NCBI GenBank assembly: GCA_017853315.1
Contig: JAFMJW010000001.1
Location: 960-64,959 of the forward strand
Origin: Alphaproteobacteria bacterium
Lineage (GTDB): Bacteria > Desulfobacterota > Binatia > UBA12015
Length of the DNA stretch: 64,000 nt
Reading direction: 5' to 3'
Within the stretch, counting starts at the first letter, position 1. Each line of letters opens with the position of its first letter. The notes beneath the pieces were generated by a model that searched no databases, was not told the DNA's origin, and saw only the letters and a program-made list of their open reading frames with translations. Position numbers and translations under genes: made by a program. This document shows, piece after piece, positions 1-21,187 of the stretch.

Positions 1-465
1 ACGTCTCCGTGACGGCGCGCGCGCGATTCCGGTCGCCGCGGTCCGATCCTGCCATCCTCGTCCGCCGTCGATGGCCGCTCCGTGCAACCGCGCGCGCGCT
101 GTCAACGATTCGTCACGATCGGATCACCCGACCGACACCGGTGGTCGTTAGGGCTGCGAGCGTCGGGGCGGAGTCCGGGCGCCGACCGGATCCGCCCCGC
201 GTGAGACCATCGTGAAGAACCCGCCGGGAAACGACTTGCCGATCGAGGCGGAGCTCCCGCGTGCGCGACCTCTCCCGGTCGTCCGCGACACCGGCTCGCC
301 GCGGTCTCGCCGCTCTCCTCGAGGGTGGCGCGCTCGGGAGGCCGCGTGAGCGAGGCGACGGCGACCGACCTGCGGGCAGGATCTCCGGGCTCGACGCCGC
401 CGGGCTCGGGGTTCTCGACGTTCTACGCGGAAGACCCCGGCGATCGCCGCCGCTGGGGGCCGGCG

Positions 466-1218
466 ATGCTCGGCTCGGCCGGGCTCTACGCCCTGCTCGC
501 CGTCCTCGCCCTCCTGCTCGGCAAGGCGACGAAGCAGGTGATCGAGGAGAAGAAGATCGACCTCACCTTCGTGCAGAAGGTCGTGAAGCCGGAGCCGCCT
601 CCGCCGCCGCCGCCGAAACTGGTCGAGGCGGCCCCCGAGCCGCCGAAGCCGATCGAGAAGAAGCCGGACGTCCCGAGGCCGGTCGCCGCGAAGCCGCCGG
701 CCGCGGCCGCCGTGGTGCGGCCCGACCAGAAGATCCGCAGGCTCGACAAGCCGCCGCCGGTGAAGAAGTTCGTCGCACCGAGGGAGATGCCGCTCGAGGC
801 CCCGAAGGAGGCGGACCCGAGCGAGGACAAGGGCATCGCGGTCTACGGCGAGCCCGGCGACGGCGACCCTGCCGGCCTCGAGGGGGGCGAAGCCGACGGC
901 CTCGCCGGGGGCGACGTCGGCGGAGGGGCGGGCGCCCTGCCCGAGAACGCGTCGCCGCCCGAGCCACTGCGCACCAACGTCGTGCCCGTCTATCCCGAGG
1001 ACGCTCGAACGAGCGGCAGGACCGGAGTCGTCGTCCTGAAGGTCGTGGTCCTGCCCGACGGCTCGGTGGGTGACGTGCGCGCGATGCGTGGCGAGGAGCC
1101 GTTCGTCTCGGCGGCGATCGCCGCGGTGAAGCGATGGAAATACGAGCCGGCCCGGGTCGATGGGCAGCCGATCACCGTCTACCGGATCGTCCAGATCCCC
1201 TTCAAATTGTCCGCCTGA
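466..1218 (+). CDS. tonB: TonB family energy transducer (N-terminal TM anchor, Pro-rich spacer, TonB C-terminal domain)
   Basis: ORF 325..1218 trimmed to the internal ATG at 466, just before the hydrophobic anchor LYALLAVLALLLG. Contains a PPPPPPPK Pro/Lys-rich spacer and a C-terminal VVLKVVVLPDGSV...YRIVQIPFKL TonB_C motif. Confidence 0.75.
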   Translation: MLGSAGLYALLAVLALLLGKATKQVIEEKKIDLTFVQKVVKPEPPPPPPPKLVEAAPEPPKPIEKKPDVPRPVAAKPPAAAAVVRPDQKIRRLDKPPPVKKFVAPREMPLEAPKEADPSEDKGIAVYGEPGDGDPAGLEGGEADGLAGGDVGGGAGALPENASPPEPLRTNVVPVYPEDARTSGRTGVVVLKVVVLPDGSVGDVRAMRGEEPFVSAAIAAVKRWKYEPARVDGQPITVYRIVQIPFKLSA

Positions 1219-1262
1219 CGGCCCGGCGCCGCGGGCGCCGGAGGGAAGAGAGAGGTTTCGAG

Positions 1263-1967
1263 ATGTCCTTCAACTGGTCCGAGATCTGGCAGCACATGGG
1301 TGCACCCGCGATCACGATCGCGGTTCTCCTGCTCGTGATGGGCCTCGCCTCGCTCACCGTCTTCATCGAGCGGACGATCGCGCTGCGGCGCTCGCAGGCG
1401 GCCTCGCGGCTGTTCGCCTCCGCGGTCGCCGAGAAGATCGGGTCGGGCGACGTCGACGGTGCGATCGACGAGGCCGCCCGGCACGAGCGGAGCCATCTCG
1501 CGCGGGTGACGAAAGCGGCGCTTTCCTCCTGGGAGGAGGGCCGCAGGGGCCGGGACGCGGGCGGGCTGCCCCCGGTCGAGAAGGCCCGGCGCCACGTCGA
1601 GCGGGTGCTCGAGGAGACCGGAGAGGAGATGCGCAGCGGCATGTCGGTCCTCGCCACCGTGGGCTCCGTGGCGCCGTTCGTCGGTCTCCTCGGCACGGTC
1701 GTCGGCATCATCTCCGCGTTCCAGGGCATCGCCTCGACCGGGTCGGGCGGGCTGTCGTCGGTCTCCGCCGGCATCAGCGAAGCCCTCGTCGAGACCGCGC
1801 TCGGTCTCGCCGTCGCGATCCCGGCGGTGCTCGCCTTCAACTACCTCTCGACCGCGATCGACGCCGACGAGTCCAGGCTGTCGCGCGCGGCCGGACAGCT
1901 GCTCGACGACGTCGAGCACTGGGACCGGGTGGAGACTTCCGGGGTGCGACGTGGGCGCGTCGCGTAG
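1263..1967 (+). CDS. exbB: MotA/TolQ/ExbB proton-channel protein
   Basis: ATG at 1263 inside ORF 1134..1967. Three TM segments and the conserved FVGLLGTVVGII / SEALVETALGL motifs of the ExbB/TolQ family. Confidence 0.85.
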   Translation: MSFNWSEIWQHMGAPAITIAVLLLVMGLASLTVFIERTIALRRSQAASRLFASAVAEKIGSGDVDGAIDEAARHERSHLARVTKAALSSWEEGRRGRDAGGLPPVEKARRHVERVLEETGEEMRSGMSVLATVGSVAPFVGLLGTVVGIISAFQGIASTGSGGLSSVSAGISEALVETALGLAVAIPAVLAFNYLSTAIDADESRLSRAAGQLLDDVEHWDRVETSGVRRGRVA

Positions 1968-2478
1968 GAAGAAGTCCGGGGGCGTGGCCCCCGACATGAA
2001 CGTCACGCCGCTCGTCGACGTCGTGCTCGTGCTGCTGATCATCTTCATGGTGGTCGCGCCGCGCATGAACCAGAGCGTTCCCGTCGACCTGCCCGGGATC
2101 CTGAATCCGGACCCGGAGGTGAAGATCGCCCCGCCGGTCAAGCTCTCGATGAACCACGCCGGCGAATTCTACGTCGAGGACGCCAGGGTCGATCTCGACG
2201 GCGCGATCGCGGCGCTCGCCGAGGCGCATGCACAGGATCCGGATCGTCGCCTCGTCCTGCGTGCCGACGCACGTCTGACCTACGGCCAGGTTCGGCGCGT
2301 GCTGGCTCGGACCCAGCAGGTCGGGTTCCCGGGCGTGTCGATGATGGTCGGAGAGCGGGCTCGCAGCCGCGGCGCGGGCGATCCCGACGCTCCGGTCGCG
2401 ATCGACCGGACCCCGGCCGAGACGGTGCAGGAGCCGCCCGCGGCGCCCGCCGAGCCGGCCGCGGCGCAGGAGGGATGA
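1951..2478 (+). CDS. exbD: ExbD/TolR biopolymer transport protein
   Basis: N-terminal MNVTPLVDVVLVLLIIFMV signature. GTG start overlaps the exbB 3' end; ATG at 1996 is an alternative start. Confidence 0.8.
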   Translation: MGASRRKKSGGVAPDMNVTPLVDVVLVLLIIFMVVAPRMNQSVPVDLPGILNPDPEVKIAPPVKLSMNHAGEFYVEDARVDLDGAIAALAEAHAQDPDRRLVLRADARLTYGQVRRVLARTQQVGFPGVSMMVGERARSRGAGDPDAPVAIDRTPAETVQEPPAAPAEPAAAQEG

Positions 2479-2482
2479 CCCG

Positions 2483-2977
2483 GTGGCGATGAACCTCGGC
2501 GGGAAGGGCAAGAGCGTCTCCCCGCAGATGAACGTCACTCCGCTCGTCGACGTGGTCCTGGTGCTGCTCATCATCTTCATGGTGGTGACGCCGCTGCTCA
2601 CGAAGACGTTCTGGGTGCACACTCCGAAGCAGGAGAAGAAGGAAGTCGAGAAGCAGGAACTCGACCAGGATCCGAATCCGCCGCTCGTCATGCGGGTCGC
2701 CGCGGATCGCACCGTGACCGTGAACGGGGTCGCGGTTCCCTTCGAAGACCTCGTCCTGCGGCTGAAACGCATGTTCGCCGCCCGCGAGGACCACGTGCTC
2801 TTCTTCGATGCCGACGACGATGCGCCCTACGGATTGGCGATGGAGGTCCTCGACCGTGCCCGCGAGGGTGGGGCGGTCACGATCGCCCCGCTGACCGAGG
2901 CTCTCGCGCCGGCGGCAGGAGGCGGCGCGCCGCAGGCGCCCGCGCCGGCAGTCCCGGAAGCCGCACCCGCAGCCTGA
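2483..2977 (+). CDS. exbD: ExbD/TolR biopolymer transport protein, second paralog
   Basis: Second near-identical N-terminus MNVTPLVDVVLVLLIIFMVV; the C-terminal domain is divergent. Start is GTG at 2483 or ATG at 2489. Confidence 0.8.
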   Translation: MAMNLGGKGKSVSPQMNVTPLVDVVLVLLIIFMVVTPLLTKTFWVHTPKQEKKEVEKQELDQDPNPPLVMRVAADRTVTVNGVAVPFEDLVLRLKRMFAAREDHVLFFDADDDAPYGLAMEVLDRAREGGAVTIAPLTEALAPAAGGGAPQAPAPAVPEAAPAA

Positions 2978-2994
2978 CCCGCGGCGCGGGGGCC

Positions 2995-4101
2995 TCAGGC
3001 CGCGAGGACCTCGCGGAGTCGTCGGGGCAGCTCGCCGAGTCGGTGGGTCGAGACGCGGAACCCGAGGCTCTCGAACCACCTGTGGCTCGATGCGTTCTCG
3101 GCGGACTCGAGCAGGATCGCGTCGAGCCGCTGGCGCCGCGCGCTCGCGTCTTCGAAGAGACCGTGCACGATGCGCTCGAAGGGAAGTCCTTCGCGCGAAG
3201 GTCGGCCGCCGGCCGCGTAGCCGACCACGAGAAGATCGGCCGGAGCGAGCTCCGAGACGCGTGCGCCCGCGGGTTCCCCCGCCAGGAGCGCGCGAAGCAG
3301 GTGGTAGCCGTAGCGGCCGAGTTCGAGCCGCTCCTCGATCGTCTCGACGCCGCCGCCGATGCCGATTTCGAGGGAGGAGAACCAGGGCCCGTCGTCGCAG
3401 AGCGAGGATGGCGCGCCGTAGAAGGTGCGAAGGACTCCCTGCGCCGAGACCACGAGGGCGGCCTCGCCGTGGAGAGGAAGGTGCGCGAACCCGGTCCCGC
3501 CCTCCAGGATCTTCAGGAGCCCCAGCCGGACGTCGCCGAGGCGGGCGGCCTCGTGCAGCACGGGCCACCATGCGCCCATCTCCCCCGAGGCGATGGCAGA
3601 GCCGATCCCGTCGACGTTGGTGGTGAGGTGGACGACGGGACGCTCCGCGGAGAGCTCCCGGAGGATCCCGAAGAGCGCCTGGTGGGCGGCCTTGCGGGCG
3701 AGCGAGCGGCGCTCCTTCCGGCATGCGAGGCGGAGCTCCTCGAACATGCGGCGGGCGACGTCGCCGCCGGTCGCGACCCCGGCGGCGACGAGCGCGTCCA
3801 GGTCTCGCCGACGTCGCCACTCGACGCTCGGCCGAATCCCCGTCACCGGTTCGAGCGAGGCGATGCGCCTCGCGAGGTTCACACCGTCGGCGCGCGCGAG
3901 CCCCTGCCCGGTGACGACCACGAGGGGTCTCGGGCCGGAGGCGATGCCCTGGCGCGAATCGCGAGCCACGAGTCGATCCCAGCACCGCGACGTTTCGGAA
4001 CGGTTGACGGGACGTTCACACTTCGTGAACGGACGCGCGAAGGCCCCCGGTCCCGCCCGAGTCGCGCGGCCGTCTTCACGACCGGATCCGCGCCTCGTCA
4101 C
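2995..4101 (-). CDS. SIR2-like (SIR2_2 / DHS-like NAD-binding fold) domain protein with an uncharacterised C-terminal ~70 aa
   Basis: Ordered motifs VVVTGQG (Gly-rich NAD loop), LTTNVDGI (catalytic Asn context), LPLHGE (HG catalytic His motif) and DLLVVGYAAGG (terminal VGYS-like strand). Residue composition is protein-like (W, Y, H, F present) rather than GC-artefact-like. N-terminal extent is uncertain. Confidence 0.45.
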   Translation of the reverse strand: MTRRGSGREDGRATRAGPGAFARPFTKCERPVNRSETSRCWDRLVARDSRQGIASGPRPLVVVTGQGLARADGVNLARRIASLEPVTGIRPSVEWRRRRDLDALVAAGVATGGDVARRMFEELRLACRKERRSLARKAAHQALFGILRELSAERPVVHLTTNVDGIGSAIASGEMGAWWPVLHEAARLGDVRLGLLKILEGGTGFAHLPLHGEAALVVSAQGVLRTFYGAPSSLCDDGPWFSSLEIGIGGGVETIEERLELGRYGYHLLRALLAGEPAGARVSELAPADLLVVGYAAGGRPSREGLPFERIVHGLFEDASARRQRLDAILLESAENASSHRWFESLGFRVSTHRLGELPRRLREVLAA

Positions 4102-4223
4102 GGAGTCGTCATCTCGCGCGCGTAGACCGGATCACGAATCCCCCTCCAGGCGGATTCCGGGCTCGACGGCCCGTCCATCCCCCGGGGCGATTCCCCGGGC
4201 CTCACCAGCAAGGGAGAATCCAC

Positions 4224-6290
4224 ATGAGGGATCGATCGAGGGCCTCGGCCAGGATCGCGATCGCGATCGCGATCGCTGTCGCGTCCGCCGCCTTGGCCGC
4301 CGCACCGACCGTCGGGGCGCGCGAGTCGGGCTTCCAGTCGAAGGGCGCCTACGACCTCGTCAGCAAGGACATCAACGGCGAGCGCTGGGCCATGACCTAC
4401 GACACCGACAGCCGGGTCATCACCGGCAACGTCTTCCCCGTGGACGGCGGCCCGCCGCAGTTCGTGGTCTGCGACGTGCTGTCGATCGGCGGGCAGGGCG
4501 AAGTCACCGCGGCCTGCAGCGGCGCGGATGCCTGCACCGCCTGCCCCTGCGGCAACGGCTTCTCCCCCATCGGCGAGGTCACGCTGCCGAGCAGCTTCTT
4601 CGAGACCTGCGACGCGGCCGCGCAGGTGGATGAGGCCGACGGCTCCGTCGGAGCTCCCACCTCCTTCCTGTCGGCCCCGGCCGGCGGGGCGCGCGAGTCG
4701 GGCTTCCAGTCGAAGGGCGCCTACGACCTCGTGAGCAAGGACATCAACGGCGAGCGCTGGGCCATGACCTACGACACCGACAGCGGGGTCATCACCGGCA
4801 ACGTCTTCCCGGTGGACGGTGGTGCGCCGCAGTTCGTCGTCTGCAACGTGCTGTCGATCGGCGGCGGTGGGGCGATCACCGCCGACTGCAGTGGTGCGGA
4901 CGCCTGCACCGCCTGCCCCTGCAGCCAGGGCTGGACCGGCCTCGGCCAGGTCACCCTGCCGGGCAGCTTCTTCGAGTCCTGCAGCGGCGGCACCCCTCCC
5001 GTGATCGACTGCCCCGGCGGCAACGCGATCGTGAGCGGCGTCATCACGTCGAGCCAGACCTGGCCGAGCTCGTGCAACGTGTTCCTCGACGGCACCGTCT
5101 TCGTCGACGCGGGCGTCGAGATCTTCGTCCAGCCGGGCACGACGGTGCGCGCCCGCAAGAACCCGTCGAACCCGCCGCCCTCGGCGCTGATCGTCCGCCG
5201 CGGCGCACGGATCAACGCGAGCGGCAGCGCGGGCGCGCCGATCGTCTTCACGAGCGACCAGCCCCCCGGCTCCCGGGCCGCGGGCGACTGGGGCGGCCTC
5301 GTCCTGAACGGTTCCGCCCCGGTCAACTGCCCCGGCGGCGAGTGCCTCTCGGAAGGCCTCTCGGACTCGCCCTTCGGCGGCAACGACCCGAACGACTCGA
5401 GCGGCGTGCTGCGGTACGTGCGCGTCGAGTTCGCCGGGCGCGTGCTCAGCACCGACAACGAGCTGAACGTCCTGTCGCTGAACGGCGTCGGCCGCGGCAC
5501 GCAGATCGACCACGTCCAGGCGCTCATCGGCCTCGACGACGGCATCGAGTGGTTCGGCGGCACGGTCGGGGCGAAGTACCTCGTCGCGACCGGCGCAGCC
5601 GACGACCAGTTCGACCTGCAGATCGGGACGACGGCGTCGGTCCAGTTCGGCTACGCGAGCCAGTACGGGGGCAACCTCGACTCGACGGGCAGCCACGGGA
5701 TCGAGCTCGACAACAACGAGAACGGCTTCGATTTCGAGCCGCGGTCGAACCCGCACTTCTGCAACGTGACGGTGATCGGCTGCAAGGACCAGGGCGGGAA
5801 CTGCTCGGTCGATTCGACCGGCGCGCTCCTCCGCCGCGGGACCGCGGGCCAGTTCTGGAAGTCGATCGTGACCAACATGGGCAGCCGCGGCATGCAGCTG
5901 CGCGACGCGGCGACCGCGGCCGTGGCCTGCAACCCGGGCCCGTCGCTCACCGGCAACCTCATGTTCCGCGACAGCATCTTCTGGAACAACGGCGCGAGCG
6001 GGAGCACGAACTGCGGCAACCACAGCACGACGGGCCCCGACGCGAACTGCAACTCCTGCCAGCTCTACGACCTGTGGAAGGCCAACTCGCCCGCCCCGGT
6101 CTTCGAGTCCGACCCCGGCGTGAGCGGTTCCAGCTGGCCGCCGAACCCGTTCCCGAACGGGAACGCGAACTCCTCGGCGATCGACTGCAGCACGCTCGAC
6201 CCCGCCTTCCAGTCCACGGGCTACGTCGGCGCGTTCGCGCCGGGCGGCGCCGACTGGATGCAGGGCTGGACCAGCTTCGCCGTCAACTGA
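4224..6290 (+). CDS. Secreted protein: signal peptide, two tandem copies of a novel ~124-aa 6-Cys domain, then a C-terminal beta-helix-like region
   Basis: ATG at 4224 with an AGGGAGAA ribosome-binding site. Signal peptide ASARIAIAIAIAVASAALAAAP. The domain ARESGFQSKGAYDLVSKDINGERWAMTYDTDS..CSGADACTACPC..SFFE.C occurs twice (aa 32-155 and 156-250) with near-identical nucleotides. Gly/Asn/Ser-rich C-terminal half. Confidence 0.7.
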   Translation: MRDRSRASARIAIAIAIAVASAALAAAPTVGARESGFQSKGAYDLVSKDINGERWAMTYDTDSRVITGNVFPVDGGPPQFVVCDVLSIGGQGEVTAACSGADACTACPCGNGFSPIGEVTLPSSFFETCDAAAQVDEADGSVGAPTSFLSAPAGGARESGFQSKGAYDLVSKDINGERWAMTYDTDSGVITGNVFPVDGGAPQFVVCNVLSIGGGGAITADCSGADACTACPCSQGWTGLGQVTLPGSFFESCSGGTPPVIDCPGGNAIVSGVITSSQTWPSSCNVFLDGTVFVDAGVEIFVQPGTTVRARKNPSNPPPSALIVRRGARINASGSAGAPIVFTSDQPPGSRAAGDWGGLVLNGSAPVNCPGGECLSEGLSDSPFGGNDPNDSSGVLRYVRVEFAGRVLSTDNELNVLSLNGVGRGTQIDHVQALIGLDDGIEWFGGTVGAKYLVATGAADDQFDLQIGTTASVQFGYASQYGGNLDSTGSHGIELDNNENGFDFEPRSNPHFCNVTVIGCKDQGGNCSVDSTGALLRRGTAGQFWKSIVTNMGSRGMQLRDAATAAVACNPGPSLTGNLMFRDSIFWNNGASGSTNCGNHSTTGPDANCNSCQLYDLWKANSPAPVFESDPGVSGSSWPPNPFPNGNANSSAIDCSTLDPAFQSTGYVGAFAPGGADWMQGWTSFAVN
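4252..4275 (+). repeat. (GATCGC)4 hexanucleotide microsatellite encoding IAIAIAIA in the signal peptide
   Basis: gatcgcgatcgcgatcgcgatcgc seen directly in the sequence. Confidence 0.7.
4317..4980 (+). repeat. Tandem in-frame direct repeat, 2 x ~372 nt, inside the CDS at 4224..6290
   Basis: The nucleotide string cgcgagtcgggcttccagtcgaagggcgcctacgacctcgt...acctacgacaccgacagc recurs at ~4320 and ~4692. Encodes the duplicated 6-Cys domain. Confidence 0.8.
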
Positions 6291-19123: not shown

Positions 19124-19980
19124 GCGCGAGCGCCGAGGCCGCGCCGGCCGGGGCCGCCGCCGACGCGATGGTCCGCGTCCGCGGCGCCCGCAAGACCTTC
19201 AACGTCGGTACCCCCGAGGAAGTCCGCCCGATGCAGGGGATCGACCTCGACATCCCCGCGGGGCAGTTCGTGATCGTGCTCGGCGGCAACGGCTCGGGGA
19301 AGTCGACCCTGCTGAACGGGCTCGCCGGGACCTTCCGACTCGACGAGGGCACGATCGAGATCGACGGGCGCGACGTGACCCGCTGGCCGGAGCACCGGCG
19401 CGCGGCGCTGGTCGGCCGCGTCTTCCAGAACCCGTTCAGCGGCACGGCGCCGATGATGACGATCGCCGAGAACTTCTCGCTCGCGGCGAAGCGCGGCCGG
19501 TCGCGCGGGCTCGGCTGGGCGCTCAGCTCCTCGTTCCGCGACGAGCTGCGCGACCGCGTCCGCGGTCTCCGGATGGGCCTCGAGGACCGGATCGACACGG
19601 CGATCGGCGCGCTCTCGGGCGGCCAGCGCCAGGCCCTCACCCTGCTCATGGCGACCTGGATCGAGCCCCGGCTCCTCCTGCTCGACGAGCACACCGCCGC
19701 GCTCGACCCGAAGAGCGCAGACCAGGTCATCGCGCTCACCGACGAGATCGTCTCGTCGCGCCGGCTGACCACGCTCATGGTGACCCACGCCATGCAGCAG
19801 GCGGTGAACCTCGGCGACCGGATCCTGATGATGCACCGGGGCAACGTCCTCCACGACGTGAGCGGCCCGACCAAGCGCCGCCTGCGCGTCGACGACCTGC
19901 TCGCCCGCTTCGAGGACGTGCGCCGGCGCGAGCTGCTCGACGAGGGTGCGGCGGCGCTCCTCGCGCGCGCCTACGTCTGA
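19120..19980 (+). CDS. ABC transporter ATP-binding protein
   Basis: Walker A GGNGSGKST, signature LSGGQRQ, Walker B LLLLDEHTAALD, H-loop VTHAM. GTG at 19120 overlaps the permease stop; ATG at 19168 is an alternative start. Confidence 0.8.
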   Translation: MSASAEAAPAGAAADAMVRVRGARKTFNVGTPEEVRPMQGIDLDIPAGQFVIVLGGNGSGKSTLLNGLAGTFRLDEGTIEIDGRDVTRWPEHRRAALVGRVFQNPFSGTAPMMTIAENFSLAAKRGRSRGLGWALSSSFRDELRDRVRGLRMGLEDRIDTAIGALSGGQRQALTLLMATWIEPRLLLLDEHTAALDPKSADQVIALTDEIVSSRRLTTLMVTHAMQQAVNLGDRILMMHRGNVLHDVSGPTKRRLRVDDLLARFEDVRRRELLDEGAAALLARAYV

Positions 19981-19996
19981 CCGCCCGGCGGGCGCG

Positions 19997-21187
19997 TCAG
20001 GCGATCCGCAGCACGAGCATCGAGACGTCGTCGTCGAAGTCGTGGCGCCCCTGCTCGGCGCGCACCACGTCGAGCACGCGGTGGATGTCGGCGGTCGGCG
20101 ACGTCCGCTCGCGGCCGACGATCTCGAAGAACTCCTCGAGCGTCATCATCCCGCCCGCGGGCCGCGTGACCTCGTACGCGCCGTCGCTGAAGATCCAGAG
20201 CGCCGCGTCCGGCGGCACGGTCGTCCGCCCGCCCGCGTAGCGCGTGCCGGGCAGCGCGCCGATCGGCGCTCCCTGCGCGCGGAGCGGCTCGGCCGCGGCA
20301 CTCCCGGCGACGAGCAGCGCGGGCGGATGCCCTGCGCTCGACCACGACAGGCTGCGGTCGGACGGACGGAAGACGCCGTACCAGATCGTGAAGTACATGT
20401 CGTTCTGCCGATCCATCTGGAAGGCGTCGTTCAGCGCGGCGAGCACGGCGGCGGGGTCGCGGAAGTCGACGCCGGGCAGCGTCTGCGTGCCGAGCACGTT
20501 CATCGCGGAGACCGAGAGCAGGGCCGCGCCGACGCCGTGGCCGCACACGTCGAGCACGTAGGCGGCGAGGTGGTCGTCGTCGATCCAGTGATGGCCCAGC
20601 GAGTCGCCCCCCAGCGAGGTCGAGGGCACGAACTCCCAGGCCGACTCGATCGATCCGGAGAGGGGCACGGGCAGGAGCGAGCGGACGTAGTCGGCCGCCT
20701 CGCCGAGCTCGGCGGCGAGCGCCTGCTGGCTCGCGAGCAGGTCCTGGTAGGCTTCGTTGCGCTCGAGCAGGTGGATGTAGGCCTGCGAGTGGTAGCGGAT
20801 GCGCGCGACCAGCTCGATGCGGTCGGGCAGTTTCACCAGGTAGTCGTTCGCGCCGAGCGCGAAGGCCTCGGCCTTCGTCGTCGCCTCCTCCTTGCTCGAC
20901 AGCACGATGAGCGGCACCTCGCGCGTGGCCGGCGTCTCGCGGTAGCGGCGCACCAGCGTGAGCCCGTCGATGCCCGGCATGACGAGATCCTGGAGGATCA
21001 GCGTGGGCCGGAGCTCCACGGCCCGCGCGATCGCCTCGGCCGGGTCGCCGCACCAGTGCAGCTCGACGTCGGACTCGGAGGCGAGCATGCGCTTCACCGC
21101 CTCGGCGACGATCCTCTGGTCGTCGACCAGAAGGACGACGACGCGGTGCCCGGCGGCACCCGCGGGCCGGGCCGGCGCGTCGCTCAC
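19997..21187 (-). CDS. Response regulator (REC) fused to a PP2C-type Ser phosphatase (RsbU/SpoIIE-like)
   Basis: GTG at 21187 (verified) overlaps the cheB stop by 4 nt. REC: VLLVDDQ...LILQDLVMPGIDG...PLIVLSSK. PP2C: GGDSLGHHWIDDDHLAAYVLDVCGHGVGAA...IWYGVF...FSDG. Confidence 0.8.
   Translation of the reverse strand: MSDAPARPAGAAGHRVVVLLVDDQRIVAEAVKRMLASESDVELHWCGDPAEAIARAVELRPTLILQDLVMPGIDGLTLVRRYRETPATREVPLIVLSSKEEATTKAEAFALGANDYLVKLPDRIELVARIRYHSQAYIHLLERNEAYQDLLASQQALAAELGEAADYVRSLLPVPLSGSIESAWEFVPSTSLGGDSLGHHWIDDDHLAAYVLDVCGHGVGAALLSVSAMNVLGTQTLPGVDFRDPAAVLAALNDAFQMDRQNDMYFTIWYGVFRPSDRSLSWSSAGHPPALLVAGSAAAEPLRAQGAPIGALPGTRYAGGRTTVPPDAALWIFSDGAYEVTRPAGGMMTLEEFFEIVGRERTSPTADIHRVLDVVRAEQGRHDFDDDVSMLVLRIA

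Follow-up and report, generated by a model that had tools for sequence, protein, structure and literature searches.

SIR2-domain enzymes that cleave nicotinamide adenine dinucleotide (NAD+), here called NADases, are among the commonest effectors of bacterial immunity and have been catalogued almost wholly by sequence profiles (Pfam SIR2_2, PADLOC, DefenseFinder). Described systems include ThsA of Thoeris, which joins a SIR2_2 domain (PF13289) to a SLOG domain (PDB 6lhx, 7uxt, 8bto); SIR2-HerA (Nezha, with a dodecameric assembly; PsSIR2 in PDB 8w9l, and 8yhx, 8j4u, 8sub and 8wld); KomC of Kongming (PDB 8zsf, 9v0g), which acts in a KomBC complex according to PDB titles that include a form bound to deoxyinosine triphosphate (dITP) and NAD; and proteins of the DSR2, Avs5, SAMD9 and FAM118B type, most of them large multidomain sensors or filament formers. 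Here we analysed a SIR2-like gene on the minus strand of a 64,000-nt stretch of a genome assigned to Binatia (GCA_017853315.1, contig JAFMJW010000001.1, positions 960 to 64,959; hereafter the window). Positions 2995-3969 of the window encode a highly divergent protein, predicted to form a single SIR2-fold domain, which we take, with a confidence only somewhat above even, to be a sensor-less NAD+-cleaving enzyme of a tiny unannotated family.

The protein is only 9-13% identical to the SIR2 subunits of SIR2-HerA, no HerA ATPase gene lies near its gene, and the PADLOC and Pfam models miss it. With KomC it shares 12-14% identity; the sequence of KomC betrays its relationship to ThsA (E 4e-19), whereas that of the SIR2-like protein does not, and unlike the components of KomBC it is encoded without a recurring partner. 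Compared with ThsA, it lacks a sensor domain, be it SLOG, Macro or another, and has no PADLOC match, and its gene is flanked by exbD2 and the gene of a beta-helix protein instead of by a ThsB/TIR gene. In contrast to the DSR2, Avs5, SAMD9 and FAM118B type, it consists of a single 324-aa domain. Neither the window nor the seven orthologous loci held a HerA, a large C-terminal sensor, a pAgo or a STAND NTPase, so that the architectures of SIR2-HerA, DSR1-2, SPARSA (SIR2-APAZ with pAgo) and Avs5 were not found there, nor was a TIR protein or any other recurring partner, in agreement with the initial annotation, which had described the gene as standing alone. From canonical sirtuins (PF02146: CobB, Sir2Tm, Af-Sir2, SIRT1-7) and SirTM the protein differs in lacking a Cys4 zinc ribbon and a PF02146 match; like NADase-type enzymes it carries a glutamate after the His-Gly motif, and its structural scores against the sirtuins are lower than those against defence NADases. 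Judged by its predicted structure, the protein is best described as belonging to the SIR2 fold superfamily, as the representative of a new family that sequence profiles do not see.

The SIR2 assignment, which the initial annotation had read from sequence motifs, was upheld by an AlphaFold2 model built from a 14-sequence alignment (mean predicted local distance difference test score, pLDDT, 84.6; predicted template modelling score, pTM, 0.88). The model contains six main strands (residues 16-20, 111-116, 160-165, 245-249, 282-287 and 305-309), which are predicted to form a parallel, six-stranded Rossmann sheet that carries a helical insertion, as is typical of the SIR2 fold superfamily, and this fold is closer to SIR2 proteins than to other Rossmann folds. 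All 50 of the 50 Foldseek matches in the PDB at E<=1e-3 were SIR2-fold proteins (best E 3e-6; template modelling scores 0.4-0.56), and the top four viral matches in BFVD were sirtuins; identity in the structural alignments was only 9-15%. Structural-comparison scores were 16.1 for PsSIR2, 15.7 and 13.6 for SIR2-HerA, 14.7 and 14.4 for KomC and 13.4 for SeThsA, followed by Af-Sir2 (13.2), SIRT1 (12.4) and SirTM (12.3), with Avs5, FAM118B, SIRT6/7 and SAMD9 reaching down to 8.5. These scores, together with the presence of only two cysteines and no zinc ribbon and with the acidic residue after His-Gly, suggest that the protein is closer to NADase-type SIR2s than to deacylases.

The C-terminal ~70 aa (residues 255-324; positions 2998-3207, minus strand), which had been left unassigned in the initial annotation, are modelled as helix-strand(282-287)-helix-strand(305-309)-helix, with a pLDDT of ~88-93 over residues 281-320. 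A permissive hhalign alignment, which was not significant, placed residues 305-323 on the last beta-alpha unit of the ThsA SIR2 domain. This segment most likely supplies strands 5 and 6 and the helices that complete the six-stranded sheet, with no extra domain, and in the model the whole 324 aa are accounted for by one SIR2 domain, of which residues 1-8 are predicted to be disordered.

The four motifs that had suggested a SIR2 domain occur in the order claimed, at residues 17-23 (VVVTGQG), 116-120 (TTNVD), 166-168 (LHG) and 246-251 (LLVVGY) of the 324-aa protein, and in the model they sit immediately after strands 1, 2, 3 and 4, respectively, as in SIR2 enzymes. The loop G21-Q22-G23 (3901-3909, minus strand, as are the following motifs), directly after strand beta1 (16-20), is the positional equivalent of the GAG dinucleotide-binding loop of sirtuins and ThsA. 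The putative catalytic Asn/Asp motif T116-T117-N118-V119-D120 (3610-3624) follows strand 111-116 and compares with TTN112YD of ThsA, the sequence TTNYD being common to ThsA, SeThsA and KomC. The putative catalytic His motif H167-G168-E169 (3463-3471) follows strand 160-165 and compares with H152-G-D of ThsA, H146 of KomC and H171 of DSR2; the acidic residue after His-Gly is thus Glu here and Asp in ThsA and KomC. Finally, L246-L-V-V-G250-Y251 (3217-3234) forms strand 245-249 and a Gly-Tyr turn comparable to FLFVGFS in ThsA and LFIGYS in KomC. The residues putatively equivalent to N118 and H167 are those mutated in deposited catalytic-dead structures: Ala at N112 in ThsA (PDB 8bto) and, in the depositors' naming, KomC(H146N) and DSR2 H171A.

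We measured conservation in an alignment of 26 family members with identities down to 25%. Invariant columns were D58, R110, V112, N118, D120, A133, W135, G168, E169 and G250, and at least 90% conservation was seen at G21, Q22, G23, T116, H167 and Y251, as well as at A284 and W298. The four motifs, whose conservation across the family bears out the initial annotation, therefore occupy the most conserved columns of the alignment, beyond what chance would give. The only two cysteines, C83 and C191, are not conserved family-wide; with so few, the protein has no Cys4 zinc module of the kind that sirtuins with deacylase activity on proteins carry, and a peptide-binding module is likewise absent.

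Since the region is ~72% GC and long shadow open reading frames (ORFs) are abundant on both strands, the coding status of the gene had to be tested. The minus-strand ORF at 2995-4101, to which the initial annotation had assigned the gene, is present and encodes 368 aa counted from the first GTG. The GC content at codon positions 1/2/3 of this frame (0.76/0.55/0.86) is that of tonB, exbB, exbD1, exbD2 and other neighbours, while an overlapping plus-strand ORF (3043-4125) shows the mirrored shadow pattern (0.86/0.55/0.75). Together with the selection on the gene described below, this dispels the concern, raised at the outset, that the frame might be non-coding. The frame is therefore real, and it was the 5' boundary that had to be moved: the codon-position signal fades above ~3925, five of the six closest homologous clusters are 324 aa long, and public protein data already contain an identical 324-aa product with a GTG start at 3969, encoded on a 79-kb NCBI/Logan contig. 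For these reasons the coding sequence most likely runs from 2995 to 3969 (minus strand; GTG start at 3969, TGA stop at 2995-2997), and the remaining 132 nt (3970-4101) are probably an upstream non-coding region that holds the 5' untranslated region and promoter. No paralogue of the gene was found within the window.

The family is very small. We found 13 homologues at 40-99% identity, and an exhaustive profile hidden Markov model (HMM) search of 1.84 billion representative proteins returned only 46 clusters at E<=1e-3, including several fragments, and no bridge to the large SIR2 clades. All named relatives are annotated as hypothetical proteins. The ratio of non-synonymous to synonymous substitution rates (dN/dS; Nei-Gojobori) was 0.20 between the window and its orthologous locus L007 (dN 0.165, dS 0.82) and 0.24-0.61 for other pairs, showing that the gene is under purifying selection. 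Its dN is nonetheless ~8 times that of exbD2 (0.019), and the identity to orthologues is 38-74% as compared with 63-96% for ExbB and ExbD, so that this is a comparatively fast-evolving protein.

Distant members of the family (P numbers denote protein clusters), about seven of which have an informative context, occur in surroundings that differ from those of the window. P0043 is encoded directly downstream of a full-length PD-Lambda-1 protein (PADLOC E 1.6e-179), and P0023 (L013) directly downstream of an AbiJ_NTD4/Abi_C protein matching PDC-S32. In P0039 (L011, 101-1609), which lies near phage integrase, RHH and FRG genes, a CinA domain (PF02464, residues 12-164, E 5.7e-27) is fused to the SIR2-like domain (185-478). 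The CinA family includes the nicotinamide mononucleotide deamidase PncC, and the fusion would fit a role in NAD-related nucleotide chemistry; neither this architecture nor the family itself was found to be described in the literature. P0037 (L018, 1971-4898; also L019) closes an apparent operon, after a 415-aa and a 174-aa gene, that contains a 4-bp overlap and adjoins an rve transposase, and P0019 (L020, 1637-3030) overlaps by 4 bp a downstream gene of 141 aa among IstB, Mu-transposase and integrase fragments. The 415-aa, 174-aa and 141-aa proteins had no Pfam or PADLOC match and are possible novel partners or sensors. As far as about seven gene neighbourhoods can indicate, these are contexts in which defence or mobile-element cargo is usually found. 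In this sample defence genes neighbour some distant members, and in the window's clade the flanks hold Ton and metabolic genes.

We infer NAD+ cleavage from the closest structural relatives of the protein (SIR2-HerA, KomC, ThsA, DSR2) and from the His-Gly-acidic and TTNxD signatures. The protein would bind NAD+ through the Gly loop and the Asn/Asp and His-Gly-acidic motifs at the ends of the Rossmann strands, and would cleave the nicotinamide-ribose bond, most probably as an NAD+ glycohydrolase and less likely as an ADP-ribosyl transferase. Its activity might be restrained by oligomerisation or filament formation (as for ThsA, KomC and FAM118B), through which SIR2 NADases are commonly activated, by a small-molecule signal or by a partner encoded elsewhere, and in the lineage of the window it may serve in defence, in stress-induced dormancy or in a domesticated regulatory function.

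A number of observations weigh against an NAD+-cleaving SIR2 enzyme, beginning with the sequence searches. We ran Pfam-A, NCBIfam and PADLOC profiles on the 368-aa and 324-aa forms of the protein and on 14 close and 26 diverse family members. The protein gave zero matches at E<=10, and no SIR2 profile matched any of the 26 members; PF13289 (SIR2_2) and PF02146 (SIR2) in particular were without a match at that threshold, an outcome that goes against the SIR2_2-type membership proposed by the initial annotation and that it had itself named as grounds for abandoning the proposal. PF13289 was, by way of positive control, present in every one of the 120 ThsA homologues listed. Sub-threshold matches of family members to FdhE_N and Cas6 were dismissed as noise. 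Searches of all PDB sequences with phmmer and two family profiles detected no sirtuin, and an apparent dPPR10 match (E 7.7e-8), which adds up eight repeat matches to 'TT.iDGL' that are each below threshold, was dismissed as an artefact. We also built templates of ThsA, SeThsA and KomC, after checking BcThsA against PDB 6lhx (100% identity over residues 3-281); the ThsA template is shallow, its homologue search having yielded only ThsA orthologues at least 62% identical. Alignments by hhalign to shallow and deeper ThsA and KomC templates were non-significant (probability 1.2-1.5%). In permissive mode they were collinear, without significance, for three motifs (GQG/GAG, TTN118VD/TTN112YD and H167GE/H152GD), and in strict mode only the GQG segment was paired with the GAG loop of ThsA, again without significance. 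The equivalence of N118 and H167 to the catalytic Asn and His thus draws on strand position and a non-significant alignment rather than on superposed coordinates. This SIR2-fold family escapes standard sequence profiles completely, and with no SIR2 profile matching, the assignment to SIR2 was rescued by structure prediction only.

Further points on the same side concern the active site and the setting of the gene. The Gly loop reads GQG and not GAG. H167 is present in 24 of the 26 members and is replaced by Asn in P0007 (L005, 3676-4623; also L006) and P0043 (L015, 1782-2759), both of which retain the Asn/Asp motif and the Gly loop. P0007 belongs to the window's own lineage, and two independent assemblies yielded it in identical form, which makes a sequencing error no explanation of the substitution; the same change was used to inactivate KomC (H146N, as named in PDB 9xvc). 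Either the His is dispensable in this family, then, or some of its members are not NADases. A sensor-less NADase, if constitutively active, would be toxic, and we see nothing that could hold it in check. The context in the window's lineage is not defence-like, consisting of a stable synteny with housekeeping Ton genes and of metabolic genes on the other flank. The NADase activity is accordingly to be read as putative, a prediction from the model and motifs.

Among the alternatives, the one that survives best, though we regard it as unlikely, is a housekeeping NAD+-dependent protein modifier, either a lysine deacylase or a SirTM-like ADP-ribosyltransferase, which would regulate lineage-specific targets instead of depleting NAD+. 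Against it speak the missing Cys4 zinc-binding module and PF02146 match, the best structural matches, which are NADase-type SIR2s and not deacylases, and the His-Gly-acidic and TTNxD motifs, which are typical of ThsA and KomC. A non-synonymous rate ~8 times that of the neighbours would also be unusual for a core regulator, and the distant members occur in defence and mobile contexts.

Less probable still is a SIR2-fold protein without catalytic activity that serves in sensing or regulation by binding NAD+, ADP-ribose or a related nucleotide. The natural H167N substitution maintained in P0007 and P0043 speaks for such a protein, as do the unusual GQG loop and the architecture of a single domain with no visible restraint on a toxic activity; on the other hand, the invariance of N118, D120, G168 and E169, with His in 24 of 26 members, is what a maintained active site typically looks like.

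A functional coupling to the TonB-ExbB-ExbD system has to be weighed from the genomic context. As the initial annotation had it, the gene lies between the tonB-exbB-exbD1-exbD2 cluster (325-2977, plus strand; tonB 325-1218, exbB ~1263-1967, exbD1 1951-2478, exbD2 2483-2977) and the gene of a secreted repeat or beta-helix protein. We identified the Ton genes by the Pfam domains of orthologous genes and traced synteny by tblastn in seven loci (L001, L003, L004, L005, L007, L009 and L010); a profile scan of genomes with a narrower family alignment gave 4 loci. The metagenome-assembled genomes that hold the related loci are labelled Candidatus Binatia, 'Deltaproteobacteria', Thermodesulfobacteriota, 'Alphaproteobacteria' and, implausibly in one case, 'Enterobacteriaceae'. 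The Ton cluster is the sole neighbour that is constant across the orthologous loci, and the SIR2-like gene adjoins exbD2 in every locus with sufficient flank (L001, L003/L008, L004, L005/L006, L007, L009 and L010). The two genes are usually convergent, separated from stop to stop by 17-21 nt in five lineages (the window, L001, L007, L009 and L010), which in the window is a 17-nt junction (2978-2994) where no terminator consensus was found. Because 17-21 nt leaves no room for separate terminators, transcripts crossing the junction may overlap in antisense. In L005/L006 the SIR2-like gene is inverted and co-directional with exbD2, with a gene of 137 aa in between, and the non-Ton flank varies among loci (the beta-helix protein, a 467-aa protein with no assigned function, a GNAT-acyltransferase-arginase operon, asparagine synthase, enoyl-CoA hydratase).

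This conserved adjacency, which survives at least three surrounding arrangements, including the inversion in L005, while the other flank changes, and in which the short stop-to-stop gap recurs in five lineages, speaks for a coupling in which, for instance, the gene would be regulated by convergent transcription over the junction, would modify the Ton proteins, or would respond to Ton-dependent entry of phages or bacteriocins. We nevertheless consider such a coupling quite improbable: the loci all come from one related lineage, which makes inherited synteny the simpler view; in the usual, convergent orientation the two genes do not share a transcript; Ton genes are not found beside the distant family members; and known SIR2 biology suggests no mechanism. 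Since the identity ranking of the SIR2-like protein tracks that of its neighbours, vertical inheritance in one lineage would be the simplest explanation of the synteny.

At a similarly low probability stands a bolder combination, in which this SIR2 branch, so far unrecognised, would be a minimal sensor-less NAD+-depleting immune effector, equipped with novel partners in its mobile branches (the 415-aa and 174-aa pair, the 141-aa protein, the fused CinA domain) and domesticated beside the Ton operon in the Binatia-like lineage, where its activity or expression would be gated by Ton, for instance through convergent transcription across the junction or by sensing Ton-dependent phage or bacteriocin entry. 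The weakest alternative, a spurious long ORF or a decayed defence pseudogene, was prompted by the 72% GC content with its many long shadow ORFs and by the lack of a profile match, and is refuted by the gene-like codon-position GC, by homologues down to 25% identity with invariant motifs, by a confidently predicted fold and by dN/dS of 0.2-0.6, which together with the conserved catalytic motifs also rejects the decayed remnant considered in the initial annotation; the ORF is a real, functional gene.

Upstream, the SIR2-like gene shares a region (3970-4223, including 3970-4101) with the divergently oriented beta-helix gene, and this is the stretch least conserved relative to L007. A promoter scan upstream of the SIR2-like gene gave no sigma-70 consensus; this outcome, like the missing terminator consensus at the exbD2 junction, would be expected in a non-enteric organism of high GC content. 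The region contains a perfect palindrome, GTTCAC-N5-GTGAAC (4014-4030), ~45-60 nt upstream of the GTG start, which is unique in the 64-kb window (0.02 expected by chance). It could be considered a possible operator, of uncertain relevance, and was set aside as such, since orthologous loci keep no more than half of it, namely the TTCACGAA half in L007 and L005. In the more distant loci L001, L009 and L010 other upstream blocks are shared instead, among them GGAATCTTCG and GTAACA...CTCTAGAG.

The secreted beta-helix protein (4224-6290, plus strand) opens with two tandem repeats of ~140 aa (ARESGFQSKGAYDLVSKDINGERWAMTYDTDS...), and the 137-aa protein of L005/L006 is homologous to one such repeat. 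The beta-helix gene of L007 (2-1084) is without about one repeat unit (window ~4401-4791) and is elsewhere 93-100% identical in nucleotides (dS 0.10). This dS, far below the 0.82 of the SIR2-like gene and the 0.49 of exbD2, suggests recent recombination or transfer of the beta-helix gene. Between the window and L007 the SIR2-like gene is ~75% identical in nucleotides and its flanks 90-98%, the drop in identity spanning ~2900-4300. The idea of an allelic replacement or divergence island, as evidence of an arms race, was dropped in view of ordinary purifying selection, and because the dS of the SIR2-like gene is nearer to that of exbD2 than to that of the beta-helix gene, the beta-helix flank is the probable outlier.

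Other features of these loci concern the neighbours. The maximal exbB ORF of the window (1134-1967, plus strand) encodes 277 aa, and its orthologues, of 234 aa, align from an internal Met at ~1263, where translation probably starts. In L003 (3255-6672) three genes on the same strand, for a GNAT acetyltransferase, an acyltransferase of the PlsC type and a member of the arginase family, precede the SIR2-like gene, with a gap of 49 nt; this trio resembles an ornithine-lipid synthesis set, and it may stand beside the SIR2-like gene by coincidence. L008, which is equivalent to L003, lies on CAZGUU010000031.1, labelled 'uncultured Enterobacteriaceae bacterium'; its Ton and beta-helix orthologues are 60-71% identical and arranged as in the Candidatus Binatia locus L010, and the bin appears to have been assigned to the wrong taxon. 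In L004, whose contig is near-identical to that of the window and extends to the left of the window's start, a TonB-dependent receptor adjoins tonB, and ~9 kb beyond tonB (19813-20975) an Exo_endo_phos gene is followed by a regulator with a WYL/WCX domain. WYL regulators often accompany defence genes; this one is too distant to be tied to the SIR2-like gene.

Many SIR2 variants are already known, and the interest of this one lies in its invisibility to defence annotation, its minimal architecture and its linkage to Ton genes. Even when it is conserved and its active-site motifs are intact, a SIR2-fold family can escape sequence profiles completely and come to light only through structure prediction. 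Should the protein be an active NADase, it would rank among the smallest known, with no sensor attached, and how it is kept off would be the next question. The practical value of the finding is modest, since with 46 clusters among 1.84 billion proteins the family is very rare, and its host lineage is uncultured. It does provide leads in the CinA fusion, in the operon partners and, within a phylum that is uncultured, in the unusually stable linkage to the Ton operon.

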